Source of the DNA: Flavobacteriaceae bacterium
GTDB lineage: Bacteria > Bacteroidota > Bacteroidia > Flavobacteriales > Flavobacteriaceae
Assembly (NCBI GenBank): GCA_965224465.1
Contig: OZ245049.1
Coordinates: forward strand, 2,700,001-2,732,000
DNA length: 32,000 nt
Direction: 5' to 3'
The position numbers and the translations under genes are program-made. Under the pieces are notes generated by a model. That model did no database searches, had not been told where the DNA came from, and saw only the letters and a list, made by a program, of their open reading frames with translations. Positions 1,531 to 31,516 of this stretch are shown in pieces (position 1 is the first letter of the stretch; the number at the start of each line of letters is the position of its first letter).

Positions 1531-1606
1531 TACCAGCAATTACAATCCAAAATGATCGATATAAATGATTTATTTTACGTTGTATCGTTGTTCAAAAACA
1601 GACCAC
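1531..1606 (+). repeat. MITE/REPIN-like element, 5' half only (copy A)
   Basis: taccagcaattacaatccaaaatgatcgatataaatgatttattttacgttgtatcgttgttcaaaaacagaccac aligns with the first ~75 nt of the 161-bp copies. It lies between the permease stop and the SPFH start. Confidence 0.8.
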
Positions 1607-1616
1607 ACTTACGCCC

Positions 1617-3380
1617 CTATATGATCAAGCGCACACCACCGAGCTCTTCAATTCTATACGGGAACTTTTCACTTGGAGAACCAATAAACATAAAATTGAT
1701 TGGAATATTCCATTGTTCAGAAAGTTCACGAATCAATGCAGGAGAAAACACCCCTTCAACAACAACAAGTTCCACATCGATCTCTGGATATTCCCTGTCT
1801 AAAAAGCCAATCTCTAATTTCAGATGTTCTGGTTGCTGTTGTCCTTTTTTAAGAACAATTGCAATTTTAATTTTTTTGGTATGTTCGTTTTTAGATACAT
1901 ACAACATCACCTTATTCAAAGACGCAATATTATCGCCTTTGGTAAAAAACACAAACTCTTGTTCATTGATATCATCGATCAATTGTTGTATTTTTTTATC
2001 GGTAGTAATGGCAAATCTTCGAATGGGATTAAAAATTGCATCCATAGATTTTAACAGTAATTTCAACAAAATAGTTCTGTTTAACATCACCAAAACAAAC
2101 AACATAGAAGGAATAAAATAGTACAAAAACACGGTTAAATTACTAGGTGAACCTTCCTTAGAAGGCATGATAATATTCCCCACTAAAGCGATCAAAACAG
2201 CACCAATAGCAATAAATAAAGAAAGCCAAGAAGCTTTTTCTGGTCTTGGTATTTTTCCTCTTTTCACTTTTAATAAAACATTCCCAATCCCAAACAATGC
2301 CATTACAGACAAAAAGGAGATGGTATAAACACCTGCTAATAATTTCACATTCCCATCTGTAATCAACAAGACGGAAACAGACAATAAGAAAAACAAAATT
2401 ATAATTCTATATGAACTTCCTTTTTTATTCTTTTTTAAGAAAAACGGAGGCATAATTCTATCCAATGCCATTCTTTCAAGCAAACCAGTAACTCCTACAA
2501 ACGAAGTTAACACAGCTCCACTTAAGACCAAAAATGCATCAATAGCAATTAAATAGGCAAGCCAATCGCCCCCTACATGTTTCCCCATTTCAATCAATAA
2601 TGTGTTTTGATATTCATCACTTTGCAACACAGGTATTGTAAATAAAGCCAAGGCAAAAACTGCCATCAAGGGATTGATAACACTTACAATAAACCACATG
2701 TTTTTTAAGGTCTTTGGAAAGACACCTTTTTCTTGTTCTTCAACAAAATTAGCAGAACTTTCAAATCCAGAAACACCTAACATAGAAGCTGCAAACCCTA
2801 AAAATATAGCATTTACAATACTCCCATGCTGTAAAGGATAATGCCAATTTTCAAAAAAGACTGCCACATCATTTTGAAATAAATAATAAATAATTACCCC
2901 GCTCAAAACAAGTAGAGAAGCCAAATGAAATATAAAAATTCCAATAGCTACTTTTGCTGACTCAGAAATCCCACCAATAACCAATAGAGAGAAAAGTCCT
3001 AACAAAACAATGGTTACAGGAATAATAGGCATTGCAGGAATAATATGATGCAAATAATGAATGGCTTCATTTCCAGAAATCACAGCCGTAGCCATGTAAG
3101 ACAACAAGGTAAGTGTAGCTGCAAAAGAGGCCGTAGACTTACTTGTAGTATTTAACAACGCATTGTAAGCTCCTCCATTTAAAGGAAGTGCACCAACCAC
3201 TTCGCCATAAATTTTACGGAATAAAAACAACACAAAAGACACAATAAGTAAAGTAACCCAAGCGTACTGTCCGGCAAATGCAATGGCCAAGGCAGAGACA
3301 TATAATACCGAAGAACTAATGTCATTTCCACAAATAGCCGTTGCCGACAATTCGTTTAATTTTTTATTTATTTTTTCCAT
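1617..3380 (-). CDS. APC-superfamily (amino acid/polyamine-type) permease with a soluble C-terminal extension
   Basis: The ORF track gives 1617-3413. I prefer the ATG at 3378-3380 (MEKINKKLNELSATAICGNDISSSVLYVSALA...). About a dozen hydrophobic segments are followed by a ~150-aa non-hydrophobic tail. Confidence 0.75.
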   Translation of the reverse strand: MEKINKKLNELSATAICGNDISSSVLYVSALAIAFAGQYAWVTLLIVSFVLFLFRKIYGEVVGALPLNGGAYNALLNTTSKSTASFAATLTLLSYMATAVISGNEAIHYLHHIIPAMPIIPVTIVLLGLFSLLVIGGISESAKVAIGIFIFHLASLLVLSGVIIYYLFQNDVAVFFENWHYPLQHGSIVNAIFLGFAASMLGVSGFESSANFVEEQEKGVFPKTLKNMWFIVSVINPLMAVFALALFTIPVLQSDEYQNTLLIEMGKHVGGDWLAYLIAIDAFLVLSGAVLTSFVGVTGLLERMALDRIMPPFFLKKNKKGSSYRIIILFFLLSVSVLLITDGNVKLLAGVYTISFLSVMALFGIGNVLLKVKRGKIPRPEKASWLSLFIAIGAVLIALVGNIIMPSKEGSPSNLTVFLYYFIPSMLFVLVMLNRTILLKLLLKSMDAIFNPIRRFAITTDKKIQQLIDDINEQEFVFFTKGDNIASLNKVMLYVSKNEHTKKIKIAIVLKKGQQQPEHLKLEIGFLDREYPEIDVELVVVEGVFSPALIRELSEQWNIPINFMFIGSPSEKFPYRIEELGGVRLII

Positions 3381-3822
3381 TTTTAATATCCAACAGGTGG
3401 TTTTATTTCGCACAAACTCAAAAATACAGCATCAAAAATCAAAAGAATCTTTAATCTGTATTCAACATTGCACACGTAAGTTATTGCTTTTAAACAATCG
3501 TAGTGATTAAAAAAATATCAAAAGCTATTCAAAAGTAGTTTTATTCTAAGAGGAAACGAACTATTTACAGTCTTTTTTTTACTTTAAATATTTATTTTTA
3601 AGCGATAACGTTTTCGTGAGAACAGCTTCTTTATCATTTAAAAAACCCACTTTATTTGCGGATTACGCAGCTCGAAATCACTGTAAACACCCTATCATTC
3701 AAACCGAAATCTGAACCTAACTACACATATTCCTTCCTTATCTTATGTTAATTTTAATGACAATTGAATTTCAAGATTACAGCCCTTATCAACGAATCTA
3801 TTCTAGATTTTCTACAAGTGAT

Positions 3823-3855
3823 GACAAATACATTTCCAAGTGACAGTTTAGAAAT
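3823..3855 (-). repeat. MITE/REPIN-like element, 3'-terminal fragment (copy K)
   Basis: acaaatacatttccaagtgacagtttagaaat matches the reverse complement of the 3' terminus of the long copies (ccaaatacatttccaagagacggtttagaaat). Confidence 0.55.
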
Positions 3856-4133
3856 TTAGTTGGTATCACTACGTCAGATGTAAAGCATCCTTTGCAATCC
3901 AAAACTACACAAGGTAAAAGCTACATAAACTATTCTGAATATATACTTCGGGATAATACACACGCCACCAATTTAAAACGTTGCAAAACAATTAGCCACA
4001 CAAGAACTTCAGCCATTTCCCCACAACACTTCACTCAAACCAACCAATAAACGGTGTTTTTTACAAGTAAAAACCTTTGATAAAACTACAAATACAAGCA
4101 AGAACAGCTATGATTTGTGGCTATTTTTGTAAT

Positions 4134-7118
4134 ATGTTTATAAACAATCACACGTATTACAGCCTACGATATGGCACTATGAGCCCCGAAAGATTAGCCA
4201 CACTAACTACTGTTATGGGGGCTAGCACGCTTGTACATACAGATATAAACAACACCTCTGCCAGTTTAGACATGCTTCGTTTGGCAAAAGAACACCAACT
4301 AAAACCTGTATTGGGAATTGATTTTAGAAACGGTGCCAAACAGGAATTTATAATGCTCGCAAAAAACAATACTGGTTTTAAAAACTGCAATCAATATTTA
4401 TCCTCTTTTTTACATCAAACAACGTTCACAATCCCACAAAAATGCGCACCACTTCAAGATACTTTTGTAATCTATCCTTTCCAAAAAAGCATCGATTTTA
4501 AACTATCCAATCATGAATTTATAGGCATCAAGAAGGAAGAACTAGGGAAATTAAGATTTTCCGAATGGAGACATCAATTACACAAACTAGTTGTGCTACA
4601 AACCATCACTTTTGAAGACAAAAAAGGTTTTAACAGCCACCGGTTGTTGCGAGCTATTGAGAACAATACGCTTCTGAGTATGCTTCCTGTTTCGGAACAA
4701 GCAAGCCCAAACGATTCTGTAATTTCTGTAGAGGATTTACGCCTTTCATTTTCGGAGTTCCCAGAAATAATCACCAATACGGAGCGCTTATTATCTCAAT
4801 GTAGCATCTATTTTGACAGCTCCTCAGAAAAATCTAACAATCAAAAAAACTACAGTTCAAATCCAATTTTAGACTTCAAACTCTTAAAAAAACTAGCCTA
4901 CGACGGACTTTCATACCGCTACGAGAACCCGAGTAAAGCGGTTTATAAACGCATTAAAAAAGAACTGGATATTATCAAAGAAAAAACATTTGTGTCCTAT
5001 TTCTTAATCAATTGGAAAATTTTAAAATACGCCCGTTCCAAAGGTTATTTTTATGTAGGAAGAGGCAGTGGCGCCAATAGTATTATCGCTTATTTATTAC
5101 GTATTACCGATGTAGATCCCGTAGCATTAGATTTGTATTTTGAGCGTTTTATCAACCTCTACAGAAAAAGCCCTCCCGATTTTGACCTAGACTTTTCTTG
5201 GCGTGACAGAGACGATATTACGCGTTATATTTTTGAGCATTTTAAGCATACCGCTCTTATTACGGTGTACAATACATTTAAGCACAAGGCATCTGTACGT
5301 GAGTTGGGAAAGGTATTTGGCTTACCAAAGGCAGAAATTGACAAACTTAGCACACAACAATATAATTATACAAATTTAGACCAACTCTCCAAACTGGTAC
5401 TTATATACAGCAAACACATCCAGGGATTCCCAAATTATTTAGGCATCCACGCAGGAGGAATCTTAATCTCGGAAGCACCAATTCACCAATACAGCGCCAC
5501 CTTTATGCCTCCAAAAGGCTATGCCACAACACAATTTGACATGGTGGTTGCAGCACATACAGGCTTGCATAAATTCGATATTCTGAGTCAGCGAGGATTG
5601 GGAAAAATTAAGGAAGCCGTTGCTATTATTGCCTATAATCAACCCCATATTCCTAGCATAGACATCCATGATATCAAACGCTTTAAAACAGACGAACGCA
5701 TTAAAAACCTTTTAAAAACTGCACAGGTAATTGGTTGTTTCTATGTAGAATCTCCTGCCATGCGGATGCTCTTAAAAAAACTACAAGTAACCGATTATTT
5801 AGGCTTGGTAGCTGCGAGTTCCGTTATTCGCCCTGGCGTAGCAAAATCGGGCATGATGCGAGAATACATTTTACGATACCGTTTTCCAGCACGCAGAAAA
5901 GAAGCACATCCGGTAATGCTAGATATCATGCCCGAAACTTTTGGTGTGATGGTATATCAAGAAGACGTAATAAAAGTAGCCCATCATTTCGGAGGGCTCA
6001 CCTTGGCAGAATCAGATGTCCTACGTAGAGGAATGTCAGGAAAACAACGTTCCAAAGGAGAATTCAATACGATAAAAGACCAGTTTTTTAGCAATTGTAA
6101 ATCAAGCGGAAAATCCGATAAATTAGTTGGTGAAATTTGGATGCAAATAGAAAGTTTTGCAGGATATGCTTTTGCCAAAGGACATTCCGCCTCCTACGCC
6201 GTAGAAAGTTACCAAAGTTTATTTTTAAAAGCGTATTTCCCCTTGGAATATATGGTGGCAACTATTAATAATTTTGGAGGGTTTTATCGTACAGAACTCT
6301 ATGTACACGAAGCCCGTATGCATGGAGGAGACATCCAGCCACCCTGCATCAACAAAAGCTATACACAAACCGTAATTTACGGAAAAGCAATTTATTTAGG
6401 CTTTCAATTTTTAGCATCGTTACAGTCAAAAACAAGCAAAGAAATTGTCAAAGAAAGAACGTCCAATGGCCCATTTAAACACCTCGATGATTTTATTGAT
6501 AGAGTCCCTATTTCCATAGAGCAACTAGCGATTTTAATAAAGATTGATGCGTTTCGATTTACAAAAATAAACAAACGAGAATTACTGTGGGACACACATA
6601 TAAAAATAGGAAAAACAGCGATCAACAAACCCACCATTACGCTTTTTAAACAAGAGCGCATTCACTATAAAACCCCAAAACTTACATCCACAGCAGCAGA
6701 AGATGCCTTCGACCAAATTGAGCTATTAGGATTTCCTATTTGTTCGTATTTTAAATTATTAAAAAAACCTGTAATCAGTCCGATTCGCGCCAAGGAATTA
6801 ACACAACTTAAAGGGAAAACAATATGCATAGCAGCATATTTAATTACAGTAAAAAAAACGATTACTAGCAATGGAAAGCCCATGTATTTTGGAACATTTT
6901 TAGATATAGATGGTGATTTTATTGACACTGTTCATTTTCCTCCTTCAGCAGAAAAACACCCATTCCGAGGGACAGCAGTCTACCAAATAACTGGAAAAGT
7001 AATCGAGGAATTTGATTGTATAAACATAGAAGTAAGCAGTATGGAACGACTTGCAATTATAGAAGACCCACGCTATACTGACAGCAGAAAAGCACAAAGA
7101 CCAAGACCTAAAAAATGA
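4134..7118 (+). CDS. dnaE2: DNA polymerase III alpha-like, short error-prone DnaE2-type
   Basis: Motifs seen: a PHP-like N-terminus (MFINNHTYYSLRYGT), palm motifs PPDFDLDF and GIHAGGILIS, KFDILSQRGL, and FAGYAFAKGHSASYA. A C-terminal OB-like segment is present. At ~995 aa it is much shorter than a replicative DnaE. I place the start at ATG 4134, not the track's 4077. Confidence 0.85.
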   Translation: MFINNHTYYSLRYGTMSPERLATLTTVMGASTLVHTDINNTSASLDMLRLAKEHQLKPVLGIDFRNGAKQEFIMLAKNNTGFKNCNQYLSSFLHQTTFTIPQKCAPLQDTFVIYPFQKSIDFKLSNHEFIGIKKEELGKLRFSEWRHQLHKLVVLQTITFEDKKGFNSHRLLRAIENNTLLSMLPVSEQASPNDSVISVEDLRLSFSEFPEIITNTERLLSQCSIYFDSSSEKSNNQKNYSSNPILDFKLLKKLAYDGLSYRYENPSKAVYKRIKKELDIIKEKTFVSYFLINWKILKYARSKGYFYVGRGSGANSIIAYLLRITDVDPVALDLYFERFINLYRKSPPDFDLDFSWRDRDDITRYIFEHFKHTALITVYNTFKHKASVRELGKVFGLPKAEIDKLSTQQYNYTNLDQLSKLVLIYSKHIQGFPNYLGIHAGGILISEAPIHQYSATFMPPKGYATTQFDMVVAAHTGLHKFDILSQRGLGKIKEAVAIIAYNQPHIPSIDIHDIKRFKTDERIKNLLKTAQVIGCFYVESPAMRMLLKKLQVTDYLGLVAASSVIRPGVAKSGMMREYILRYRFPARRKEAHPVMLDIMPETFGVMVYQEDVIKVAHHFGGLTLAESDVLRRGMSGKQRSKGEFNTIKDQFFSNCKSSGKSDKLVGEIWMQIESFAGYAFAKGHSASYAVESYQSLFLKAYFPLEYMVATINNFGGFYRTELYVHEARMHGGDIQPPCINKSYTQTVIYGKAIYLGFQFLASLQSKTSKEIVKERTSNGPFKHLDDFIDRVPISIEQLAILIKIDAFRFTKINKRELLWDTHIKIGKTAINKPTITLFKQERIHYKTPKLTSTAAEDAFDQIELLGFPICSYFKLLKKPVISPIRAKELTQLKGKTICIAAYLITVKKTITSNGKPMYFGTFLDIDGDFIDTVHFPPSAEKHPFRGTAVYQITGKVIEEFDCINIEVSSMERLAIIEDPRYTDSRKAQRPRPKK

Positions 7119-8281
7119 GCATAGAACGCGCAATAGTACACATGGATTTGGATACTTTTTTTGTATCCTGCGAACGTCTCTTAGACACGCGACTGGAAGG
7201 AAAACCTATATTGATCGGAGGCACATCAGACCGCGGGGTAGTCGCAGCTTGCAGTTACGAAACACGCCTATTTGGTGTGCATTCTTCTATGCCCATGCGC
7301 ATGGCAAAACAACTCTGCCCAGAAGCAATAATCCTGCGTGGAAACACTGAAACTTACACAAAATTCTCTAAAATAGTCACCGATATTGTCAAAGAAAACG
7401 TGCCTTTATACGAAAAAACATCCATTGATGAGTTTTATATTGATTTGACGGGAATGGAGACCTTTTATGGGAGTCACCAACTGGCGAGTGAACTTCGAAA
7501 AAACATCATCAAAAACACGGGACTTCCTATTTCGTTTGGTTTATCAATCAACAAAACAGTTTCTAAAATTGCCACGGGAGAAGCCAAACCAAATAACGAA
7601 ATCAAAATAGACAACGGACAGGAGAAAGAATTTTTAGCCCCTTTATCGGTAAAAAAAATACCCATGGTAGGTGAAGTTACTTATCGTACTTTATGTGATT
7701 TAGGTATTAAGAAAATTAAAACCATACAGGAAATGCCCTTGGAAATGATGGCAAAAGTATTGGGTAAAAACGGAATTGCTATTTGGAAAAAATCTCAAGG
7801 TATAGACCCAAGCCCCGTATTGCAATACCAAGAACGTAAATCCATTTCTACAGAACGTACTTTTGAAAAAGACACCACCGATGTGGTGAAACTGGAAGGT
7901 ATTATTGCTGCCATGACAGAAAACCTCACGTACCAACTACGCAGAGGAAATAAACTCACTGCTTGCATCACTTTTAAAATACGCTATTCAGATTTTCAAA
8001 CCTATACCGTACAAAAAAAGATCCCCTACAGTGCCGCTGACCACAAAATTATACCATTGGTAAAAGCACTTTACAAAAAACTATACCAACGCAGGTTACT
8101 TGTCCGTTTGATAGGCGTAAAATTCAGTCATTTAGTAGAAGGAGGGCACCAAATAGATTTGTTTGACGACCATGAAAAAACCATCAATCTAACCCTCGCT
8201 ATGGATAAAATGAGAGAACGCTATGGAGACACAGCGGTTATCCGTGCCATAGGAATGAACACAAAAAACATCCGCCGATAG
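7115..8281 (+). CDS. dinB: Y-family DNA polymerase IV (DinB-like), catalytic residues present
   Basis: Motifs seen: VHMDLDTFFVSCE, SIDEFYIDLTG (catalytic Asp/Glu retained) and SFGLSINKTVSKIATG. The start overlaps the dnaE2-like stop by 4 nt (ATGA at 7115-7118). Confidence 0.9.
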   Translation: MSIERAIVHMDLDTFFVSCERLLDTRLEGKPILIGGTSDRGVVAACSYETRLFGVHSSMPMRMAKQLCPEAIILRGNTETYTKFSKIVTDIVKENVPLYEKTSIDEFYIDLTGMETFYGSHQLASELRKNIIKNTGLPISFGLSINKTVSKIATGEAKPNNEIKIDNGQEKEFLAPLSVKKIPMVGEVTYRTLCDLGIKKIKTIQEMPLEMMAKVLGKNGIAIWKKSQGIDPSPVLQYQERKSISTERTFEKDTTDVVKLEGIIAAMTENLTYQLRRGNKLTACITFKIRYSDFQTYTVQKKIPYSAADHKIIPLVKALYKKLYQRRLLVRLIGVKFSHLVEGGHQIDLFDDHEKTINLTLAMDKMRERYGDTAVIRAIGMNTKNIRR

Positions 8282-8416
8282 CATCTATTTAAAAGACCTC
8301 CTATAACAGCAAACCTAAAACTCTAAAAACCGACAATTACCATCAACCAAAGCACAGATTTAAACCCTAAATTACACCGTGATTGTTTTATTTATACGCA
8401 CCTAAAACTAGTTGCT

Positions 8417-9571
8417 TCAAACAATTTCAGGCACTTGTTTGGAAGCATTTGATATTTCCAATAACCGTCCTTTAGAATCAAAAACCCCTGAGATGTGATC
8501 TGTTTCTTTTTTTGCCAGTAAATGATCACCTGACAACACTACTTCATATCCTTTTTGGCTTAAATAGCAAAAGAGTCCCTCCTTGTGATCAAACGCTATT
8601 CTTGTAATTGTTCTCGAAAAATGAGCACAAATTAAAGCCGGAATTATGAGCGCTTTTACCTCTAATATCTGAGCTGTAATCAAGACATACACCACCAATC
8701 CATTATAGAGTAAAGGCACATAACAACTCGACGGTATAAGTCCCGATGCTACCACAGAAAAATAATGCCCAGGATCGTGGTCTAGCACTAACTTAGGACT
8801 TAATAAATCTTGAATACCATGCTTTTCTCCCAACGCTTTCATTGCTAAAGAAGTTTCTAAAAGGTGTTCTGGAATACCACTTTGTGTATTTGCCCATCCC
8901 CATAACCAAGACTGCTCCATCTCCGAATAAGTTCCAATAATTTGCATATCAAATACATGTTCGCCGTAAGTCACCAAGCCTTCCATCATATTACAACTCC
9001 AAGCCAATCCTTCAATAATTTCCGAAAAAATATCTTGACGTTCAAATGTCAAAACAAGGGACTGATTGTGTAGTTGTGACAGTGTCATTTTTTTAAAAGC
9101 ATCAGACTTTAGCAAAGTCTCTTTTTTCTTAACCGCTTTATCCGACATGTTGGAAAATGTTTCTAAATGAGTTTGTAAAAGGAAACATATTCTTTTAACT
9201 TTCTCCGCTATATTAGCTGCATTAACTACAGGACTGTGATTTATTTTTAGAACACCTGCTTCAAAGCTTATGGCGCTATCTAAATTAGACCCATCACACT
9301 CGTTCACAATAAGCACTTTTTTCAATCCGTTTTTAAGCCGTCTTTTACCGAAATCATCTGCACAAATGATCTTAAAACTTTCCACTAATGGATAAAAATA
9401 AATCTTAGGATAGGTATCCTTATACAGGTGTGAAAATTGTTCTTCTATAAGTGTATCCCAAGCAATTGAAATTGGCACACAAAATCCAGCTGCTGCTATA
9501 ATTGCAGCCTCTAATGCAGGAAATTGATCTTCTTTAAATGCTTGAATTATTCTTGTTTCTTTAAATCCCAT
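8417..9571 (-). CDS. hypothetical two-domain protein; N-terminal ~136 aa are paralogous to ORF 11195-11605
   Basis: 384-aa ORF with no competing ORF. The N-terminal domain aligns without gaps to the 136-aa ORF. Shared blocks include FP.L...I.AAA.F.VP..IAW, HLY.DTYPKIYF.PL, ADD.GK, GVL...HSPV.NA. The C-terminal half carries a WLWGWAN motif. I cannot name the family. Confidence 0.65.
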   Translation of the reverse strand: MGFKETRIIQAFKEDQFPALEAAIIAAAGFCVPISIAWDTLIEEQFSHLYKDTYPKIYFYPLVESFKIICADDFGKRRLKNGLKKVLIVNECDGSNLDSAISFEAGVLKINHSPVVNAANIAEKVKRICFLLQTHLETFSNMSDKAVKKKETLLKSDAFKKMTLSQLHNQSLVLTFERQDIFSEIIEGLAWSCNMMEGLVTYGEHVFDMQIIGTYSEMEQSWLWGWANTQSGIPEHLLETSLAMKALGEKHGIQDLLSPKLVLDHDPGHYFSVVASGLIPSSCYVPLLYNGLVVYVLITAQILEVKALIIPALICAHFSRTITRIAFDHKEGLFCYLSQKGYEVVLSGDHLLAKKETDHISGVFDSKGRLLEISNASKQVPEIV

Positions 9572-9602: not shown

Positions 9603-9647
9603 CACCAATTACAATCCTAAATCACCGATATAAATAGTTTGTTTTAC
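9603..9647 (+). repeat. MITE/REPIN-like element, 5' fragment (copy B)
   Basis: caccaattacaatcctaaatcaccgatataaatagtttgttttac matches the 5' ~45 nt of the long copies. Confidence 0.75.
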
Positions 9648-10929: not shown

Positions 10930-11033
10930 TTATTACTTATCCAAAATAACCGATATAAACAGTTTGTTTTACGTTCTAGCTATGCGAAAAACAATTCTAT
11001 TTCTAAACCGTCTCTTGGAAATGTATTTGGTAT
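10930..11033 (+). mobile_element. MITE/REPIN-like element, internally deleted form (copy C), head-to-tail with copy D
   Basis: Both termini are present (ttattacttatccaaaataaccgatataaac ... ctaaaccgtctcttggaaatgtatttggtat). The central ~57 nt, including the hairpin, are replaced by tatgcg. Confidence 0.8.
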
Positions 11034-11034
11034 T

Positions 11035-11195
11035 ATACCAATTACAATCCAAAATGACAGATATAAATAGTTTATTTTACGTTCTAGCGTTGTTGAAAAA
11101 TAGAACGATAGCTACGGCTATCCTTAGATTTTCCGCCTAACTAGAACAAAAAACAATTCTATTTCTAAACCGTCTCTTGGAAATGTATTTGGTAT
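11035..11195 (+). mobile_element. MITE/REPIN-like element, full 161-bp form (copy D)
   Basis: The 5' end is ATACCAATTACAATCCAAAATGACAG. The reverse complement of the 3' end is ATACCAAATACATTTCCAAGAGACGG, so the termini are imperfect inverted repeats. Internal hairpin: gatagc-tacg-gctatc. Roughly nine in ten positions match copy E by eye. Confidence 0.85.
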
Positions 11196-11605
11196 TATAA
11201 ATTGTTTTCTAATAATGCTATCAAGATTTTTGTTCTAGAAGCTACATCATCAGCATTTGCAACAGGGCTGTGATCTACGGTTAAAACTCCAGTAGAAAAA
11301 GTATAAGCATGCACAGGATTATGGTGATCGTTTTTATTTGTGATCACTATTTTTGACAAACCTAAAGCCAGGGCTTCTTTCCCCATATCATCCGCAGTAA
11401 TTGCAGTAAAAGCATCGATTAAAGGTTGAAAATAAATTTTCGGATAGGTATCCTGATATAAATGTAAGAAACGCTCTTCGAACAAACTAGACCAGGCAAT
11501 CTCTAAGGGAACATCAAAACATGCTGCAGCAACTATTTGTTGTTTCAAATCCGGAAATTGTTCTTCTTGAAATGTTTTTGTAAATCGTTTTTCTTTAAGT
11601 CCCAT
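11195..11605 (-). CDS. hypothetical protein, stand-alone or truncated paralog of the N-domain of ORF 8417-9571
   Basis: 136-aa ORF, roughly 45 percent identical by eye to residues 1-136 of the 384-aa protein. Its stop codon (11195-11197) lies on the last base of MITE copy D plus the next two nt. Confidence 0.6.
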   Translation of the reverse strand: MGLKEKRFTKTFQEEQFPDLKQQIVAAACFDVPLEIAWSSLFEERFLHLYQDTYPKIYFQPLIDAFTAITADDMGKEALALGLSKIVITNKNDHHNPVHAYTFSTGVLTVDHSPVANADDVASRTKILIALLENNL

Positions 11606-14297: not shown

Positions 14298-14322
14298 TAA
14301 GTAGGGATTATATCAATGATTT

Positions 14323-14483
14323 ATAGCAATTACAATCCAAAATGATGGATATAAATAGCTTATTTTACGTTCTAGCGTTATTGAAAAACAGCACGATAGC
14401 TAAGGCTATCCTTAGACTTTCCGTCTAACTATAACAAAAAATAATTCCAATTCTAAACCGTCACTTGGTAATGTATTTGGTAT
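14323..14483 (+). mobile_element. MITE/REPIN-like element, full 161-bp form (copy E)
   Basis: atagcaattacaatccaaaatgatggatataaatagcttattttacg ... hairpin gatagc-taag-gctatc ... ctaaaccgtcacttggtaatgtatttggtat. It starts 25 nt upstream of the HK start codon. Confidence 0.85.
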
Positions 14484-15105
14484 TAGTTGGTAAATAAACA
14501 ATAATAAAATCAGCTTATAAAACAAATTGATGGATATCACAAAATCATTTCCCTAACACTGTTTCTAAAAGGGCTTTTTATGCTGGTTGAATTCAAATAT
14601 AAAAGAAACAATAGCACTTATAAAATAAATACCCAAAAAAACAAAAAACACAGTAGTTTTATCAAAAACTTACTATTTATTATCTGATACAGGCGCTTAA
14701 GAAACTCGTACTTATGGAAATGTCACTAAAAAAGCAACTAGCGTACAACTACAATACTGTAGCTCAATTAATCACTACAAAAACCAATACAATTATTGAT
14801 TTTAAAGAAGTTCACAAAAATGTCAACCAAAAATAAAAATAGGAAACACACAGTTTCTTATCTCCAATTCTAGGGACGGTGCAACTGGAGCAAACACGTC
14901 TATAATAATGAATTTAGAATATACTTTTAAACACCAGAACAAACCATATACAGCTATAACTCAAACAACATTTTATGATTTTTCTGACGTTCAAAACTTC
15001 TCAAATATTCCTCATTTCTATTTTATTGATATGTACCCTAAACTTATAAAAAATGCCTTAATCTTATCTAAACAGCATATAGAATATCGTTTAAAGGAAC
15101 CTTTA

Positions 15106-15147
15106 ATACCAATTAAATTCCAAAATAACAGATATAAATTATGTTTA
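15106..15147 (+). repeat. MITE/REPIN-like element, diverged 5' fragment (copy F)
   Basis: ataccaattaaattccaaaataacagatataaattatgtttaat matches the 5' terminus and the GATATAAAT core. Confidence 0.6.
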
Positions 15148-15314
15148 ATCCTTCACTGTAAAATTAATTCGCCAAGGATTATTCCATAAATAGCATCGTG
15201 ATTCAAAAACACACCTGGTATCTTAAAGACATAAGTGTCCCTCTATTTATTCAAAAACTAAACTCATTCAAAACAATCACAAGAAATACCTTAGATATAA
15301 AATACCTACTTCAT

Positions 15315-15417
15315 ATCTCAAACACATTCCCTAGTGACGGTTATAGAAATATTTTTTAACAATGCTAGAACATAAAACAACCTATTTATACCAGTCGTTT
15401 TGAATTGTAATTGGATT
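15315..15417 (-). mobile_element. MITE/REPIN-like element, internally deleted form (copy G)
   Basis: The reverse complement reads atccaattacaattcaaaacgactggtataaataggttgttttatgttctagcattgttaaaaaatatttctataaccgtcactagggaatgtgtttgagat. Both termini are present and the hairpin core is missing. Confidence 0.75.
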
Positions 15418-15599
15418 AGTACCGTCCTAAAATTAGAACAAGCAACAAAGCAACTAAAAATAGCTGTTTTATTTCTCAAACAATAGAATATAGATAATAG
15501 TATGAAATACGATTGCAAACCATGTATATTTAGTTTTTAGGACTCTAAAAAAGACAAGGAGACATCTATTGCTTGAGAAAAGTAGTGGCTATTTTGGGA

Positions 15600-15950
15600 C
15601 TAATCTTCGTTACATTTAATCCTATGCTTATCCAATTCTACACCCATATTCAAAATAAACTGGGTGCCAACTATTAAATCTTCTATAAGTAGCAATACAC
15701 TTTCATCAACTTTTAAACAAAAATCGATCAAGGTAGAAGTTGTCCAAATAGTATTCCTGCGTTTCCCTCCACAACTTTCACAGTTACAAGGCTCATGCGA
15801 ATTACGAACTACGCGGAGCAGAGAATTCACATCTCTTTCGGTCATAAAAATCCCGACAGTTCCAATAACCATTTGGAGTTTATGTTTAGATGTAGGACCA
15901 TCCGCTACACCGTAAAATGTACCATAATCATTTTTGTAAATCAATTCCAT
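15600..15950 (-). CDS. hypothetical small protein with a CxCxxC motif
   Basis: 116-aa ORF (…SHEPCNCESCGGKRRN…). It is the only long ORF in a ~2 kb ORF-poor stretch. I recognise no family, and coding status is unverified. Confidence 0.4.
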   Translation of the reverse strand: MELIYKNDYGTFYGVADGPTSKHKLQMVIGTVGIFMTERDVNSLLRVVRNSHEPCNCESCGGKRRNTIWTTSTLIDFCLKVDESVLLLIEDLIVGTQFILNMGVELDKHRIKCNED

Positions 15951-16194
15951 ATACTTAACTTTTATTCTCTGTATAATTCAAAAAAGGAACAGCATAACCG
16001 CTCACTCTAAGGCAACTTAACATCACTTTTCAAAATTAAAACCAACTACTAAATAGGACTTCATGCTCTTTTAAATCAGCCGTTCCTCTTCTCAAAGGGC
16101 ACTCTCTAAAACAACTATGTATTTAGAATTGTTCTTAATAAGGTGTTGCAAATATAAACTTTATTTTGAATGAATCTAAATAACAAGAGTAAAT

Positions 16195-16464
16195 TTAAAA
16201 AATAAGTTCGTTACACTGCAGCCCATCACCCACTTTACATTTCCACTCCAACCACATGATTGTTCGCTTTCTATCCATAAACGGATTGGTAAAATAGTAG
16301 TCCAGAGGATTGGTATGCTCAGTTAAAATATAGGTATATAGCATACGGTTACTCTTTGCCAGCCAAACAGCTATATTTTTAACAAAAACAGCATTAAAGT
16401 GGCACAAATTGAACCGTGGAAGAAAGTATTCTTTATGTGTGTGAGACAGTACATTTTCCATCAT
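16195..16464 (-). CDS. hypothetical small protein
   Basis: 89-aa ORF (…TIMWLEWKCKVGDGLQCNELIF). It is on the same strand as ORF 15600-15950. No family recognised, and a hairpin with a T-run sits immediately upstream. Confidence 0.3.
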   Translation of the reverse strand: MMENVLSHTHKEYFLPRFNLCHFNAVFVKNIAVWLAKSNRMLYTYILTEHTNPLDYYFTNPFMDRKRTIMWLEWKCKVGDGLQCNELIF

Positions 16465-16821
16465 TAAATTAAAAGTAGTCCCTGACTCAGGCTACTTTCT
16501 AGTAAGAACTCAACTATAGCGTTTACTTACACCGTTTGTGTGTGTTGTTATTACTGACAATCAGTTACGGTAAATCTTAATACACTTCTTAACTTTTGCA
16601 CCAAAACAATACGTAGATATTACAAATTTTAGCAAAAGGTCTATTCTAAACATCTCCAAATTGGGGATACTACACGAACGTTTAGCTCGCAAATAAATCT
16701 ATTTTTCTGTTAGCCCTGATGCCATACGAGTAACCGTAGCGTTACCACGATATTATCTCGTGCAGTCAACGAGTTAAGCCATGATTTATTCGAGTTCCTA
16801 AAAAAAACAGCACCTTTAAAA

Positions 16822-16911
16822 ATGAGTCGTAATTATAAAATTCACAATCCTAAAGGTATCTATTTTGTACATTTTATCACAGAATACTATGGAAGTTGGG
16901 TATTGTTGTAA
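16822..16911 (+). pseudogene. 5' remnant of an IS200-like / REP-associated tyrosine transposase (RAYT) gene
   Basis: Own translation: MSRNYKIHNPKGIYFVHFITEYYGSWVLL*. The first ~18 residues fit the N-terminus I recall for Bacteroidota IS200-like transposases (MSRKYKFHN..G.YFVSFAT). Similarity then stops and a stop codon follows at codon 30. Confidence 0.45.
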
Positions 16912-17358
16912 TGCGTATTAAGAGTTCTTATTAAGTATTGTTAAGTTGCTACGATCACACGATACAATCGAGAGAGAGAGCGGGGTTTTATTCTATATTT
17001 TTTTTCTTAGTAAGTTCATTAATGCTACTTATTCCTGTAAGTGGTAAAACAAGAAGTATTGAAATAAGATCCTGATTTTTTACACCAACTAAACTCATTT
17101 TTAATTTTACGGAACTCTAAAATGTTTAGATGTACCTGTAAGTATTCAGTACTAAGCAAATCTTATTAAATTCCCCTTTTATCTCTTGTGTTTTTGTAAT
17201 ATCTTCGCCTCTTAGCATGTTTTGTGCTTTCTTGTTCGTACTTAAAAGCACAAAAAAACCAAGGGTTTACCTTGGTTTTCATGCTATTTATTTTCACTTA
17301 ACACCTGTAAATCATGGGTACGAAACTTGAGTTCTATTTTAATAACTAAGTAATTGAA

Positions 17359-18484
17359 GCTTAAATTCAACTAATAAACGCAACTTTTCGATTTGATTCT
17401 ATGATGGTTATATTTTCAAAACAGAAAAGTAGGAAAACCTACCTTTCTTGTCTTGATGGATATGTATCTTACGGTCTCAAATCTCGAAAAAAGAAGTTGT
17501 ATGAAACACATCACCCAAGCGCAAAGATACACAATTTGTTGCATGTTAAAACAAGGTTATAAACAGGTTGAGATAGCAGCTGCTATAGGAAAAGACAAGT
17601 CTGTTATTAGCAAAGAGATTAAGCGTAATTCAGACAAAAGAAATGGAGTTTACAAGCATGAATTAGCCCAAAAAAAGTATGCTAAACGTCATAAAGAAAA
17701 GCCTAAAAGAAAACGCTTTACAGAAGATATTCAACAAGCAATAGAGTTGTTATTGCGAGACGATTATAGTCCTGAGCAAGTAGTTGGTGTCCTAAAAAAA
17801 CAAGGTAAAGAAACGGTGTCTATTGAGCGTATATATCAGCATATTAGGGAAGACAAGAGGAATGATGGTGATTTACATACACACCTTCGCAGACAGGGAA
17901 GGAGATATAGAAAACGTGGCTCATCAAAGGATTCTAGAGGGGTTATAAAGAATCGTATTAGTATAGAACAACGCCCTGAAGTTGTTGAACAAAGAAATCG
18001 ATTTGGAGATTTAGAGGTCGATTTAATCATAGGTAAAAACCATAATCAAGCCATACTTACCGTAAATGATAGAGCTTCTGGAATGCTTAAAATGAAAAAA
18101 GTAAGCTCTAAAGAAGCAGTTGTTGTCACTAAAGCTATCAATGAAATATTAGAAGACTGGAAGCCTTATCTACATACTATAACAGCTGATAATGGAAAAG
18201 AATTTGCAGGCCATGAGCAGGTTGCAGAAAATTTATGTATTGATTACTTTTTTGCGCATCCATATCACTCTTGGGAAAGAGGATCTAACGAAAATTTAAA
18301 TGGTTTGATTAGACAATATTTTGCCAAAGGAAGTGACTTTACAAACCTAACAGATCAAAGAATCAAAGAGGTAGAAACAAAATTAAATAACAGACCTAGG
18401 AAGAGACATAAATATCAAAACCCTATATTTGTAATGGAACAATTATTATTTAACTAAAAGTTGCGTTTGTGACTTGAATTCAGC
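17359..18484 (+). mobile_element. IS30-family insertion sequence, apparently intact
   Basis: The left end is gcttaaattcaactaataaacgcaactttt (17359-17388). The reverse complement of the right end (18456-18484) is gctgaattcaagtcacaaacgcaactttt, with the inner 13 nt identical. These flank a single transposase ORF. Confidence 0.8.
17501..18457 (+). CDS. IS30-family DDE transposase
   Basis: It has an HTH-like N-terminus (MKHITQAQRYTICCMLKQGYKQVEIAAAIGKDKSVISKEIKRN). The catalytic core reads GDLEVDLIIG...ITADNGKEF...HPYHSWERGSNENLNGLIRQY. I prefer ATG 17501 over the track's 17453. Confidence 0.85.
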   Translation: MKHITQAQRYTICCMLKQGYKQVEIAAAIGKDKSVISKEIKRNSDKRNGVYKHELAQKKYAKRHKEKPKRKRFTEDIQQAIELLLRDDYSPEQVVGVLKKQGKETVSIERIYQHIREDKRNDGDLHTHLRRQGRRYRKRGSSKDSRGVIKNRISIEQRPEVVEQRNRFGDLEVDLIIGKNHNQAILTVNDRASGMLKMKKVSSKEAVVVTKAINEILEDWKPYLHTITADNGKEFAGHEQVAENLCIDYFFAHPYHSWERGSNENLNGLIRQYFAKGSDFTNLTDQRIKEVETKLNNRPRKRHKYQNPIFVMEQLLFN

Positions 18485-18640
18485 ATTTTTATAATTAGAA
18501 ATACTGGATTTCCGCTATATTGAAAAGAGCGAGAACATTTAATCATGCACTAAAAAACGAAAATTCTAAATAAAATACTCCTGAAAACACATTAGTACCC
18601 AATCATCGAAATTTTGTCAGTAAATTTGTCAGCAGAAATG

Positions 18641-18680: not shown

Positions 18681-18681
18681 G

Positions 18682-18765
18682 TACCTTGGGTGGGAATCGA
18701 ACCCACACTCCGAAACCGGAACTGGATTTTGAATCCAGCGCGTCTACCAATTCCGCCACCAAGGC
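18682..18765 (-). tRNA. tRNA-Leu (anticodon CAA)
   Basis: Folded by hand from the reverse complement GCCTTGGTGGCGGAATTGGTAGACGCGCTGGATTCAAAATCCAGTTCCGGTTTCGGAGTGTGGGTTCGATTCCCACCCAAGGTA. It gives a 7-bp acceptor stem and an anticodon stem CTGGA/TCCAG with loop TTCAAAA. It also has a long variable arm and a T-arm GTGGG-TTCGATT-CCCAC. No CCA is encoded. Confidence 0.9.
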
Positions 18766-21417: not shown

Positions 21418-21418
21418 T

Positions 21419-21461
21419 ATAATTCTTATACAAAATGATCGATATAAATAGTTTGTTTTAT
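21419..21461 (+). repeat. MITE/REPIN-like element, 5' fragment (copy H)
   Basis: ataattcttatacaaaatgatcgatataaatagtttgttttat carries the conserved AAAATGAnnGATATAAATAGTTTnTTTTA core. Confidence 0.65.
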
Positions 21462-25592: not shown

Positions 25593-25717
25593 TCGCAAAT
25601 ATCTATTTACACATCACACCATTATTTGGTTTAACTAAACGAAAGCTATAACAAAAAGCGTGAATATACTATAAAAGGAACATGGCCGACATGGGAATTA
25701 CACCAATTAAATTTCAC

Positions 25718-26083: not shown

Positions 26084-26139
26084 TCATTTTTATTTAGCGA
26101 TATTTTGAACTTGTACATAAATACCAACACAAATGCTCA

Positions 26140-26613: not shown

Positions 26614-26620
26614 CTTTAAT

Positions 26621-27634: not shown

Positions 27635-27690
27635 AACTAGATATTTTTTATAAAAATAGAATATTTATTAAACAATGGGGTCTAATTTAC

Positions 27691-27698
27691 TATTTTTG
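27691..27698 (+). promoter_or_regulatory. Bacteroidota-type -7 promoter box (TAnnTTTG) upstream of metG
   Basis: TATTTTTG lies 23 nt upstream of the metG ATG and is followed by GCAGCCA, as at prs. Confidence 0.4.
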
Positions 27699-27720
27699 CA
27701 GCCAAATAACCATGTAAATT

Positions 27721-29781
27721 ATGAGTACTTTTAACAGATATACGATTACTGCCGCTTTACCATACACAAACGGACCTGTGCATATTGGACACCTAGCTGG
27801 TGTATATGTACCTGCCGATATTTATGCGCGTTACCTACGCTTAAACGGTAAAGACGTTGCCTTTATCTGTGGTTCTGACGAACATGGAGTACCCATAACC
27901 TTAAAAGCAAAAAAAGAAGGCGTAACACCACAAGACATTGTAGACAAATACCATGCAATTATTAAGAAATCGTTTCAAGATTTCGGGATAACATTTGATA
28001 ATTATTCTAGAACTACGTCTAAAATACATCACGAAACTGCTTCTGAGTTTTTCAAAACTTTATATGACAACGGTAAATTCATAGAAAAAACTACCGAGCA
28101 ATTATACGATGCCGAAGCCAATCAATTTTTAGCAGACCGTTTTATCGTCGGAACCTGTCCAAAATGCGGAAATGAAGAGAGCTACGGTGACCAATGTGAA
28201 AAATGTGGAACCTCCCACAATGCCACCGATTTAATTGACCCTAAATCTGCAATTACAGGAAACAAACCTAGCCTAAAAGCAACTACACACTGGTTTTTAC
28301 CTCTAGATGAATACCAAGACTTTTTACAAGAATGGATTGTAGAAGGACATAAAAACGATTGGAAAGCAAATGTTTTAGGACAAGTAAAATCTTGGATAGA
28401 TGATGGATTAAGACCCAGAGCGGTAACCCGTGATTTGGATTGGGGCATTCCAGTTCCTGTAAAAGGAGGAGATGGAAAAGTACTCTATGTTTGGTTTGAT
28501 GCTCCAATCGGTTATATATCTTCTACCAAAGAATGGGCAAAAAAAACAGGTAAAGACTGGAAACCATATTGGAAAAGTGACGACACAAAATTGGTACACT
28601 TTATAGGAAAAGACAACATTGTTTTCCATTGTATTATTTTTCCTGCCATGTTAAAAGCAGAAGGAAGCTATATTTTACCAGAAAATGTTCCTGCCAATGA
28701 ATTCTTAAACTTAGAAGGCGATAAAATATCAACCTCAAAAAACTGGGCTGTTTGGTTGCACGAATATTTAGAAGATTTCCCAGGAAAACAAGACGTATTG
28801 CGGTATGCCTTAACAGCAAGCGCACCAGAAACCAAAGACAACGATTTTACTTGGAAAGATTTTCAAGCAAGAAACAACAACGAGTTGGTAGCCATTTTCG
28901 GAAACTTTATAAACCGTGTAGTTGTATTAACAAATAAATATTACGAGGGTGTTGTTCCTGCCCAAGGCGAATTGACTGACGTAGACACTGCTACTTTAGA
29001 AAAATTAGCAGAATACCCTGCCATCATTTCTAAATCTATAGAACGCTACCGTTTTAGAGAAGCTTCTCAAGAACTGATGAACTTAGCAAGACTCGGAAAC
29101 AAATACTTAGCAGACGAAGAACCTTGGAAAAAAATTAAAACAGCTCCAAATAGGGTTGAAACCATTATGAATATTGCCTTACAAATAGCCTCAGGATTGG
29201 CTATTTTAAGTGAACCACTATTGCCTTTTTCTTCTACAAAATTAAAAGGGTTTTTAAATATGGAGACTTCTACATTAACTTGGAGTGACGTGAGTGCTCA
29301 AGAGACATTGATTAATGATGGTCATACCATCAACAAAGGAGGCTTATTATTCGCAAAAATAGAAGATGACGAAATTCAAGTTCAATTAGACAAACTAGAA
29401 GCTTCAAAAAAGCTAAATGAACTGGCTAATAAAATTACAGAACCTCAAAAAGAAACTGCTACTTTTGAAGATTTCACAAAGTTAGACATCCGTGTAGGAA
29501 CAATTGTTGCCGCAGAAAAAATGCCAAAAACAAAAAAATTACTCATCCTTAAGGTAGACGTTGGATTAGATACTAGAACCATTGTAAGCGGTATTGCAGA
29601 ACATTTTAAACCAGAAGCTATTATTGGTCAAAAGGTGACTGTTTTGATAAACTTAGCACCCCGAAAACTAAGAGGTGTAGAAAGTGAGGGGATGATCCTA
29701 ATGACAGACACCAATGATGGTGGCTTGAGTTTTGTAGCACCTAACTCTGACAAAATAAGCAATGGAGAAACTATTAGCTAA
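27721..29781 (+). CDS. metG: methionine--tRNA ligase with a C-terminal tRNA-binding (Trbp111/EMAP-like) domain
   Basis: Motifs seen: the HIGH motif (PVHIGHLAG), a zinc knuckle ([18 protein letters not shown]), and a KMSKS-like KISTSK. The C-terminal OB-type domain reads LDIRVGTIV...VDVG...RTIVSGI. Confidence 0.95.
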
Positions 29782-29790
29782 TAGCTAGCA

Positions 29791-29868
29791 ATACAACTAC
29801 ATTTCCAAGTGATGGTTTAGAGCGTAAAATAAACTATTTATATCGGTCATTTTGGATTTTAATTAAAT
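29791..29868 (-). mobile_element. MITE/REPIN-like element, shortest internally deleted form (copy I)
   Basis: The reverse complement reads atttaattaaaatccaaaatgaccgatataaatagtttattttacgctctaaaccatcacttggaaatgtagttgtat. Both termini are present and ~83 nt of interior are absent. Confidence 0.75.
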
Positions 29869-29910
29869 TAAATAGACCTACTCTTTAATAAACAACGGGT
29901 CTTAAACATA

Positions 29911-29947
29911 AAAAACCGATAATTAGATGACTAATTATCGGTTTTTT
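29911..29947. terminator. strong bidirectional-looking intrinsic terminator downstream of metG
   Basis: aaaaaccgataattag-atga-ctaattatcggttttt has arms of 16 nt including the A/T runs. Confidence 0.75.
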
Positions 29948-30005
29948 ACAATCCATTCAACTGAACATTTGTTAAATTCTTCTTTCCAAATTCGTATTTT
30001 AAAAC

Positions 30006-30013
30006 TACCTTTG
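30006..30013 (+). promoter_or_regulatory. possible -7 promoter box (TAnnTTTG) upstream of the PorP/SprF gene
   Basis: TACCTTTG lies 110 nt upstream of the preferred ATG at 30123. Confidence 0.3.
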
Positions 30014-30122
30014 CATTGATTTTCTAGTAGTTATAAGAAAACACACAGAACATCCTGTAAAAAAATTAATAAGTTACCCCATAAGCATGCATTCACAACG
30101 CGCTTATCAATTTACGACACCC

Positions 30123-31031
30123 ATGAAACGATTGATATTTCTTTGTTTAGGAATTTATTCCTACACCCTCACCGAAGTAAATGCTCAACAAGAACCACAG
30201 TTTACTCAGTACATGTATAACATGTTTATTATCAACCCCGCATATGCAGGATCCAACAATGTACTTACAGCTGTAGGATTTTACCGTTCTCAATGGAACG
30301 ATATACCTGGAGCACCTAAAACTATTTCGTTTACAATGGAGAAACCATTGAGTAACGAAAAAATAGGCGTCGGTTTTACAGCGTATTCAGATCAAATAGG
30401 TCCCTCCAAAGAATTATTTGCCAGTCTAAGTGCCTCCTACTCCATCCAAACCAGTCAGAATAGCGAACTCTCTTTTGGATTGAAAGCTGGAATTCACAAC
30501 TTGGCAGTAAACTTTAACCAAGCGAATTACCAACATGAAGATTTGATAGAAAACTTCAGTAAATTTTCTCCAACAATAGGTCTTGGAGCCTTTTGGTACA
30601 GTAATAATTGGTATGTTGGTGCATCGATCCCAAACATACTACAAACAAATTATTTAGATCCTGTCCTAAAATCTGAAGCTTCTAAAAAACCACATTATTA
30701 CCTTACTGCTGGTTATATTTTTATGCTTAATGACAACTTAAAATTTAAACCAGCTGCATTATTAAAAGCAGTAACTGGAGCTCCTATGAGTTTTGATATC
30801 AGTGCAAATTTTATGTTTAGCGATAAATTAACTTTAGGAACTGCCTACAGATTAGAAGATTCTGTAGCTTTATTAACAAGTTTTCAAATCACCGAACAAT
30901 TAAATCTAGGATATGCTTTTGACTATGGCATAGGAGATATTTCCGAAATCTCTAAGTTCTCTCATGAATTTATGCTTAAATATGAATTCAATTCTTACAG
31001 AACACGTTCCTATTCTCCACGTTTTTTCTAA
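30123..31031 (+). CDS. PorP/SprF-family type IX secretion system membrane protein
   Basis: After the signal peptide (MKRLIFLCLGIYSYTLTEVNAQ) comes the hallmark QQEPQFTQYMYNMFIINPAYAG. The rest has a beta-barrel-like alternating pattern and ends in F. I prefer ATG 30123 over the track's 30087. Confidence 0.85.
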   Translation: MKRLIFLCLGIYSYTLTEVNAQQEPQFTQYMYNMFIINPAYAGSNNVLTAVGFYRSQWNDIPGAPKTISFTMEKPLSNEKIGVGFTAYSDQIGPSKELFASLSASYSIQTSQNSELSFGLKAGIHNLAVNFNQANYQHEDLIENFSKFSPTIGLGAFWYSNNWYVGASIPNILQTNYLDPVLKSEASKKPHYYLTAGYIFMLNDNLKFKPAALLKAVTGAPMSFDISANFMFSDKLTLGTAYRLEDSVALLTSFQITEQLNLGYAFDYGIGDISEISKFSHEFMLKYEFNSYRTRSYSPRFF

Positions 31032-31355
31032 TCCAAAAACACTACCTACCTAACAGGGCATCTCAAAAAGGTGCTCCATAAAACCAACCTAATACACCCA
31101 GCCTGCGTAGTTCTACTATCACTTAGAAAATAAGACATACAATGGATAGATTTCTATCTATAACTAAAAAACAAGCGGAGGTAAATGATGTTAGAGAAGC
31201 CACACATCAAAGGACATTTGCTGCTTATTATTAAATTAGGACTTACATCGAGATCCTCACAGCGCCTTAGACCCGTATAACTTTATAATGCCGCATGATA
31301 CTTATTCTTTATTACACGCTATTTTAATGGGTATCACTTTTATAGTGCGAAAATA

Positions 31356-31516
31356 ACACCAAACACCTTTTCAAGTCACGGTTTAGAAGTATCCTTATTT
31401 TTTGTTTTAGCTAACCGAAAAATCTAAGGATAGCTATTGCTATCGTTCTATTTTTAAACAAGGCTAGGACGTAAAACAAACTATTTATATCGCTTATTTT
31501 GGATTGTAATTGGTGT
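31356..31516 (-). mobile_element. MITE/REPIN-like element, full 161-bp form (copy J)
   Basis: The reverse complement begins acaccaattacaatccaaaataagcgatataaatagtttgttttacg. It contains the hairpin gatagc-aata-gctatc and ends ctaaaccgtgacttgaaaaggtgtttggtgt. Confidence 0.85.

Follow-up and report, generated by a model that had tools for sequence, protein, structure and literature searches.

A stretch of 32,000 nucleotides of contig OZ245049.1 (positions 2,700,001 to 2,732,000 of the forward strand, assembly GCA_965224465.1), referred to as the window in the following, contains eleven copies of a short repeat. These are probably old and mostly decayed copies of a non-coding, non-autonomous DNA transposon of ~160 bp, a miniature inverted-repeat transposable element (MITE) with T(T/A)A targets. 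The host is a Lutibacter-like marine member of the Flavobacteriaceae. The original prediction had called the repeats MITE/REPIN-like. The MITE part of this description is supported, since the unit is short (159–161 nt, below ~500 bp) and non-coding, has terminal inverted repeats, is flanked by direct 3-bp repeats, is dispersed in many copies and is present at a site that is empty in relatives; the REPIN/RAYT part is not. An autonomous insertion sequence (IS) with matching ends was not found within the DNA examined. The family itself is new and its distribution very narrow, but it belongs to a well-known element type and does not represent a new one.

Identification of the repeat family

Apart from the window, full-length copies were found in two other genomes. 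A scan with the subterminal core in one genome per species, covering 185,579 species, gave two matches, both of which belong to full-length copies in metagenome-assembled genomes (MAGs) of Flavobacteriaceae, NORP150 (copy L001) and NORP129 (copy L002). The three host species carry their copies at unrelated loci. A hidden Markov model (HMM) of five full-length copies, three from the window and two from the MAGs, was then used with nhmmer to search the window. All 11 sites listed in the original prediction were recovered and no additional one was found, with E-values ranging from 3e-52 for the best copy to ~0.08 for the weakest arm pieces. An exhaustive repeat search of the window picked up the family on both strands. 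The core AAAATnAnnGATATAAATAGTTTnTTTTA gave nine matches at ≤3 mismatches but none in 100 dinucleotide shuffles, and the motif of the 3' arm gave four matches where the shuffles led us to expect none. The claim of an 11-copy repeat is, therefore, sound. The five full-length copies were aligned without any indel; each comprises 161 nt with the boundaries first proposed, which confirms the exact length that had been given for the three full copies of the window.

The sites, lettered A to K along the window, fall into three classes: full copies (D, E and K), copies with an internal deletion (B, C, H and J) and solo 5' arms (A, B2, G and I). Copy B (3823..3866, minus strand) had been taken for a bare fragment at 3823–3855, but an 11-nt 5' tip, ATACCAACTAA (3856–3866, minus strand), is joined to the 3' arm, showing that the copy has a deep internal deletion; nhmmer detected it from 3825 to 3862 (E 1.2e-4) and the tip was assigned to the 5' end by MAFFT. 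The three internally deleted copies that had been listed were thus borne out and this fourth one had been missed. Identity among the window copies is 80–90% and the divergence of the copies amounts to 9–20%. Since, in addition, eight of the 11 window copies are truncated or deleted, the family is probably old and no longer active in this genome.

The distribution of the family is very narrow. Two sequence patterns searched in JGI metagenomes gave no match each, and no match was obtained in a scan of viral contigs or by blastn of the element against plasmids and phages. With Rfam at gathering thresholds the window yielded two tRNAs only, and at E up to 10 the copies yielded only spurious matches to eukaryotic microRNA and snoRNA hairpins, far below threshold. 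A hit to an already described RNA family, which would have made the repeat a known one, was therefore not obtained with any Rfam covariance model, and these empty searches are consistent with the earlier statement that the repeat cannot be assigned to a named family.

Element boundaries and flanking repeats

If both boundaries are shifted inward by 1 nt, a unit of 159 bp results, with the termini TACC...GGTA, or CACC...GGTG in copy K. Copy D (11035..11195, plus strand, nhmmer E 3e-52) then has its unit at 11036–11194 and is flanked by TTA at 11033–11035 and at 11195–11197. The unit of copy E (14323..14483, plus strand, E 4e-50) lies at 14324–14482 between TTA at 14321–14323 and TTA at 14483–14485, 26 nt upstream of the start codon (14297) of a histidine kinase gene on the minus strand. 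Copy K (31356..31516, minus strand, E 4e-48; unit 31357–31515), which is the most divergent full copy with 80–83% identity to the others, is flanked by TAA on both sides of the plus strand and thus by TTA and TTA in the orientation of the element. Of the MAG copies, L002 is flanked by TAA and TAA and L001 by TTA and TTG, the latter pair being also found at the decayed copy J. A target-site duplication of more than 1–2 nt had not been seen originally; with the boundary moved in by 1 nt, it is visible as TTA/TTA at D, E and K. The flanking 3-mers are direct and not inverted and, therefore, do not lengthen the inverted repeat, and in L002 the change from TTA to TAA is present on both sides together. 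Covarying termini of the type ACACC...GGTGT, which had also been reported, do exist, but they belong to the copy at 31356–31516; the copy at 29791, to which they had been ascribed, starts with ATTTAATT and does not have them.

The target at copy D was itself a stop codon, since the right TTA is the TAA stop of an open reading frame (ORF) on the minus strand (11195–11605), and the same holds for L002 at purF. This agrees with the original description, according to which most copies sit close to stop or start codons. The idea that copy D had truncated the ORF was rejected: the in-frame TAA is the duplicated target and tblastn showed no continuation downstream. Because its TAA is the duplicated target itself, the ORF had already ended at the point of insertion. 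It also holds that no intact gene is interrupted, as recognisable genes are left undisturbed by all copies; the 93-aa ORF in which copy G is located has no Pfam match.

A filled site and three empty sites at purF

The unit of L002 is located directly after the TAA stop codon of purF, ~65 nt before the intrinsic terminator of this gene. The same site is empty, with collinear flanks, in GCA_002400885.1 (L006/L007) and in two JGI contigs (L008 and L009), whose PurF proteins are 95–96% identical to that of L002 (89–90% at the nucleotide level). The filled site in L002 reads GCGTAT TAA, followed by the 159 nt, a second TAA, GAAGTAGT and GAGATATTAG. The empty sites read GCGTAC TAG TAAGTTGT GAGATATTAG in L008 and GCGTAC TAG ATAGTATT GAGATATTAG in L009. 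In each of the three comparisons, the global alignment was best, or as good as the best, when the 159 nt and one TAA had been removed from L002, and the remaining 47 nt equal the length found in L008 and L009; models with no duplication or with a duplication of 2 bp scored lower or required a gap. The comparison thus documents what appears to be an insertion with a 3-bp target duplication, read across genomes that are ~10% diverged. An element that inserts and duplicates its target in this manner would therefore be a MITE. Identical occupancy in related strains, named beforehand as an argument against a mobile family, was not observed: the purF site is filled in NORP129 and empty in three relatives.

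The sites of copies J and K are free of the element in the closest relative (L003/L004; MetG protein 92% identical, 84% at the nucleotide level), but the junctions could not be defined there, owing to the strong divergence of the intergenic DNA. The ~66 kb of DNA from relatives that were inspected (L003–L009) contained no copy at all.

Hairpin structure, conserved core and coding capacity

The whole unit is one long imperfect hairpin. It consists of two arms of ~70 nt, which are inverted copies of each other at ~70–75%, and of a conserved apex between them, GATAGCnnnnGCTATC. The tips of the element are TACCAATTACAATCC and GGAAATGTATTTGGTA, and within the first 12 nt 11 of 12 positions match between the two ends, so that terminal inverted repeats are present. 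For copy D, a folding energy of −58.6 kcal/mol (z-score −8.5) was calculated for the minus strand and of −41.4 kcal/mol (z-score −5.3) for the plus strand; in the comparison of strands among the copies, the values for D were −57.4 and −39.9 kcal/mol. In the consensus structure with its 59 pairs, 93.6% of the cells are paired compared with 39–46% when the partners are slid. The best conserved part is a 5' subterminal core (positions 17–46), in which five of 30 positions vary among the full copies, compared with 10 of 30 in its pairing partner. The deletion junctions lie in short direct repeats, AAAAA in copy C and TCTA in copy J. Slippage during replication across a palindrome usually leaves deletions at short direct repeats.

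On either strand, the apex hairpin (31429–31444 in copy K and present in all full copies) has an A-run before it and a T-run after it, and a terminator scan scored it in both directions as a weak terminator-like site. The longest ORF common to the copies encodes 28 amino acids. Since this is the only common ORF, its ATG is lost in copy K and many amino acids are exchanged, the element is, as judged from its reading frames, non-coding and without conserved coding capacity. The hydrophobic 28-aa ORF, MTDINSLFYVLALLKNRTIATAILRFSA (top strand of copy D, 11054–11140), is intact in four of the five full copies; copy K has ATA at the start position. The ORF is shorter than gene callers would report and is unlikely to be a gene.

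Proposed mode of transposition and points against it

In the model that we propose, the two ~70-nt arms, as imperfect inverted copies, would make the whole unit one long hairpin, whose inverted ends would be recognised in trans by a transposase, presumably of the DDE type. The unit would be inserted into T(T/A)A targets by a staggered cut of 3 bp, giving rise to the 3-bp direct duplication. A preference for TAA as target would place some copies exactly on stop codons and thus in 3' untranslated regions (UTRs) in front of the terminator. Decay of the copies took two forms: either the apex of the hairpin was deleted between short direct repeats, or one of the arms was lost.

Several observations weigh against an origin of the repeats as a MITE. 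An autonomous parent was not found: the sole transposase of the window belongs to the IS30 family and has unrelated ends, and the scan of 185,579 species genomes with the subterminal core gave the two MITE copies and no longer element, although a scan of this kind would miss a parent that shares the extreme tips only. Further matches to the tips that flank a gene were not seen in the window or in the loci of relatives that were examined. The IS30 element was rejected as parent, as its inverted repeats are unrelated to the ends of the MITE. The decayed copies C and I keep the subterminal core (positions 17–46) better than the tips, and in the full copies this core varies less than its pairing partner; both hint at a constraint beyond binding of a transposase to the ends. 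The exact duplication of 3 bp is derived from one cross-species comparison with empty sites, in genomes that are ~10% diverged, together with the statistics of the flanks. Finally, copies from different species are 90–91% identical, whereas the coding DNA of the hosts is 84–90% identical and their intergenic DNA cannot be aligned. Either the element is younger than the split of the species, having spread horizontally with its transposase, or it is under constraint.

Alternative explanations

The possibility of constraint leads to the question of whether the repeat is a functional, strand-specific module of structured RNA or single-stranded DNA, that is, a domesticated MITE or a multi-copy RNA element kept by selection, which we regard as unlikely. 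A transcript of the bottom strand (the complement of the orientation in which the element was first described) would form a hairpin of ~70 bp in 3' or 5' UTRs and would affect the stability, processing or termination of the mRNA. Indeed, the bottom strand folds better in seven of the eight copies that retain the hairpin, and the consensus folds with −43.6 kcal/mol and 59 pairs as bottom strand but with −26.0 kcal/mol and 49 pairs as top strand. Mismatches between the arms appear as wobble pairs in 30 cells at 16 sites on the bottom strand and in six cells at six sites on the top strand; this asymmetry is, however, borderline (16 versus 6 sites, binomial p ~0.05) and partly inherited from one founder. 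Changes on both sides of a pair were found at three pairs, two of them in the tips, versus 1.0 ± 0.8 in shuffles, with 21 of 500 shuffles reaching three, which for five sequences is suggestive. The indel-free alignment of the five full copies and their identity of 90–91% between species would fit an RNA module as well. Copies J and L002 sit between stop codon and terminator and the apex resembles a weak bidirectional terminator, but both copies already have intrinsic terminators 3' of them. The orientation relative to transcription (~6–7 copies bottom-sense, two top-sense) is not significant, and L002 is top-sense in a 3' UTR. Moreover, an RNA that is needed would not be expected to be truncated or deleted in eight of 11 copies, Rfam offered no match even at E up to 10, and an RNA module alone leaves the 3-bp target duplication unexplained. 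It would, therefore, be an addition to the MITE origin rather than a replacement for it. As such an addition, the transcribed hairpin might act secondarily on the stability of mRNA or on termination, which we regard as doubtful. Similarly low is the probability that we assign to a horizontally spreading, selected strand-specific hairpin that combines a constrained 5' core, preferential insertion at stop codons and a role in RNA stability, processing or termination in the UTRs of Flavobacteriaceae genes, or to a transposase of a type that is new to the MITEs of this phylum.

Two further explanations were considered. A REPIN-like or IS200/IS605-type element that is moved as single-stranded DNA by a Y1 HUH transposase (RAYT), with the remnant in the window as a dead copy, would share with the repeat the intergenic location, the hairpin of two inverted arms, the solo arms and the strand-asymmetric folding, and the conserved TTA on the 5' side could be a target or cleavage motif. 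We nevertheless consider it very unlikely. Elements of the Y1 type insert without duplicating the target and lack inverted ends, but here the ends are inverted and flanked by covarying direct 3-mers (TTA/TTA versus TAA/TAA). The arms are ~70 nt long and, by direct reading, hold neither a REP palindrome tagged with GTAG or CGTC nor a stable internal palindrome, whereas REP units comprise 20–40 bp, are themselves palindromes and carry a GTAG or CGTC tag (PMC3733652). The RAYT-like remnant that had been noted nearby is a 29-aa ORF (16822–16908). Copies of the repeat do not flank it, the closest lying at a distance of 1.4 kb, and searches of Pfam, NCBIfam, PDB and 1.84 billion representative proteins gave no match to this ORF. 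Its start, MSRNYKIHNPKGIYFV, presumably resembles the N-termini of IS200-like proteins of Bacteroidetes, which is a lead and not a test. Least probable of all, and hardly to be expected, is that the repeats are immobile and concentrated in this region, either as a repeated cis-regulatory or protein-binding module or because segmental duplication and gene conversion multiplied them locally. In favour are the conservation of the 5' subterminal core, which exceeds that of all other parts, the placement of the same element end 26–33 nt before a start codon in E, B2 and L001, and the identical 3' arms of C and D, which do show local conversion or duplication. However, copies occur at unrelated loci in the genomes of three species, presence and absence differ precisely at the purF site, and inverted ends with direct flanks are the signature of transposition. 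Neither did the core contain a clean TAnnTTTG box by eye: an outward promoter in the 5' arm, with a Bacteroidetes −7 box of this sequence, was looked for by eye only, as the scanner that was used covers promoters of the sigma-70 type.

Comparison with known elements

The Correia elements of Neisseria (CREE/NEMIS) are non-coding, intergenic units of ~100–160 bp that form one hairpin, are often co-transcribed and have no known parent transposase. The MITE described here resembles them in size, inverted ends, single hairpin, intergenic location and the occurrence of full and deleted forms that are ~50 nt shorter (161 versus 103–104 nt in the present case). It differs from them in that its sequence is unrelated, its host belongs to another phylum and it duplicates 3 bp (TTA/TAA) and not TA; furthermore, Correia elements are present in hundreds of near-identical copies, but only 13 copies with a divergence of 9–20% are known of the present family. 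ERIC/IRU elements of Enterobacteria and Yersinia are transcribed intergenic imperfect palindromes of ~127 bp, whose mobility and target duplication are poorly defined. The imperfect palindrome, the intergenic location and the dependence of folding on orientation through wobble pairs are common to both; there is no relation in sequence, and the present family has one documented insertion. Duplications of the 3-bp T(T/A)A type and short inverted ends are also characteristic of Tourist-like MITEs and PIF-Harbinger transposons and of the IS1031, IS427 and ISL2 groups of the IS5 family, and duplications of 3 bp in general are known from the IS30 and IS3 families and from part of the IS5 family. Both are leads only. 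The ends of the present element, TACCAATTAC..., are unlike the typical tips of IS5-family elements (GA/GG...) and no IS5-family transposase was seen. Within the same phylum, MITECca01 of Cardinium has a length of ~240 bp and a known parent, the IS982-family element ISCca4, with which it shares inverted repeats (PMC9769881). MITECca01 is likewise a manually curated MITE of a single lineage, but for the present element, which is a near-complete palindrome, no such parent was found.

MITEs are reported to be abundant in Bacteroidota, with 81,380 distinct MITEs in 46,051 genomes (PMC11602168). The family described here does not change the current understanding of bacterial transposons. What it contributes is a MITE family that is cleanly delimited and for which boundaries, target, deletion variants and one documented insertion are available, in a phylum whose MITEs have been catalogued in bulk but rarely dissected. 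For annotation it follows that the copies should be masked. Where copies occupy stop codons, 3' UTRs or the DNA immediately before start codons, they may alter the expression of neighbouring genes and may break short-read assemblies. The likeness of copies from different species suggests that subseafloor and marine Flavobacteriaceae have recently exchanged mobile DNA.

Individual copies and their surroundings

The remaining copies are described in the order of the window. Copy A (1531..1606, plus strand; nhmmer 1535–1602, E 1.5e-15) is a 5' half that covers element positions ~3–70, is cut just short of the hairpin apex and lies between two genes of the minus strand. Copy B2 (9603..9647, plus strand, E 1e-7) is a solo 5' arm of positions 2–46, 32 nt upstream of the start codon of the minus-strand gene 8417–9571. 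A second solo 5' arm, copy I (21419..21461, plus strand, E 6e-4), matches the core without any mismatch, has a variant tip like that of copy C and is located between the terminator of the L25 gene and pth. B2 and I end at the same position (46) and both have the variant G40; the common endpoint may be a coincidence or may mark a distinct sub-element of 45 nt.

Copy C (10930..11033, plus strand) is internally deleted to 104 nt and has a divergent 5' tip. It is arranged head-to-tail with copy D, one TTA being common to both (GGTA-TTA-TACC). The last 51 nt of C, at its 3' end, are 100% identical to those of D, which gives rise to an exact duplication of 51 nt with a period of 162 nt (10987–11037 and 11149–11199) that comprises, besides the 3' arm of each copy, the TTA and the two bases after it. 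Since the 5' arms of the two copies are only ~72% alike, the identity of the 3' arms suggests that a conversion or a tandem duplication took place here recently.

Copy G (15106..15147, plus strand, E 0.017) is a fragment of a solo 5' arm (positions ~2–35) in a gene-poor stretch and is 91% identical to copy D over 34 nt. Copy H (15315..15417, minus strand) is internally deleted to 103 nt and has decayed tips, with E-values of 4e-12 (5' arm) and 0.08 (3' arm). Copy J (29791..29868, minus strand) is internally deleted to 78 nt with the junction at the TCTA microhomology and lies between the metG stop codon (29781) and the intrinsic terminator of metG (~29913–29946). Next to copy K, the ~320 bp (31037–31355) that separate it from a PorP/SprF-family gene are missing from the syntenic region of L003/L004, where only ~30 nt lie between the PorP/SprF-family gene and the terminator of tRNA-Ala.

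Copies G and H, both decayed, are part of a gene-poor region of ~2.9 kb (14484–17350), which further contains small ORFs without a family match (15600–15950 and 16195–16464) and ends at the IS30 element; by its appearance, this part of the window is degraded or variable. The palindrome GTAACCGTAGCGTTAC, present as a single copy, is located there ~80 nt upstream of the 29-aa ORF already mentioned, which reads MSRNYKIHNPKGIYFVHFITEYYGSWVLL (16730–16908 for both). The IS30-family IS (17357–18487) looks complete, is located next to tRNA-Leu (18681–18765) and has inverted repeats of its own, ...AATTCAA..AAACGCAACTTTT; its transposase gene extends from 17453 to 18457 (NCBIfam NF033563, E 1e-86).

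The genes 8417–9571, coding for a DUF6882 protein of 384 aa, and 11195–11605, the 136-aa ORF that ends at the target TAA of copy D, are paralogous. The 136-aa protein is 51% identical to the N-terminal part of its paralogue and does not include the DUF6882 domain. Between copies B and B2, a gene for a DnaE2-like error-prone polymerase (1013 aa) overlaps with a gene for a Y-family polymerase (388 aa) at 4077–8281; from the reading of the translations, this pair looks like a typical mutagenesis cassette.

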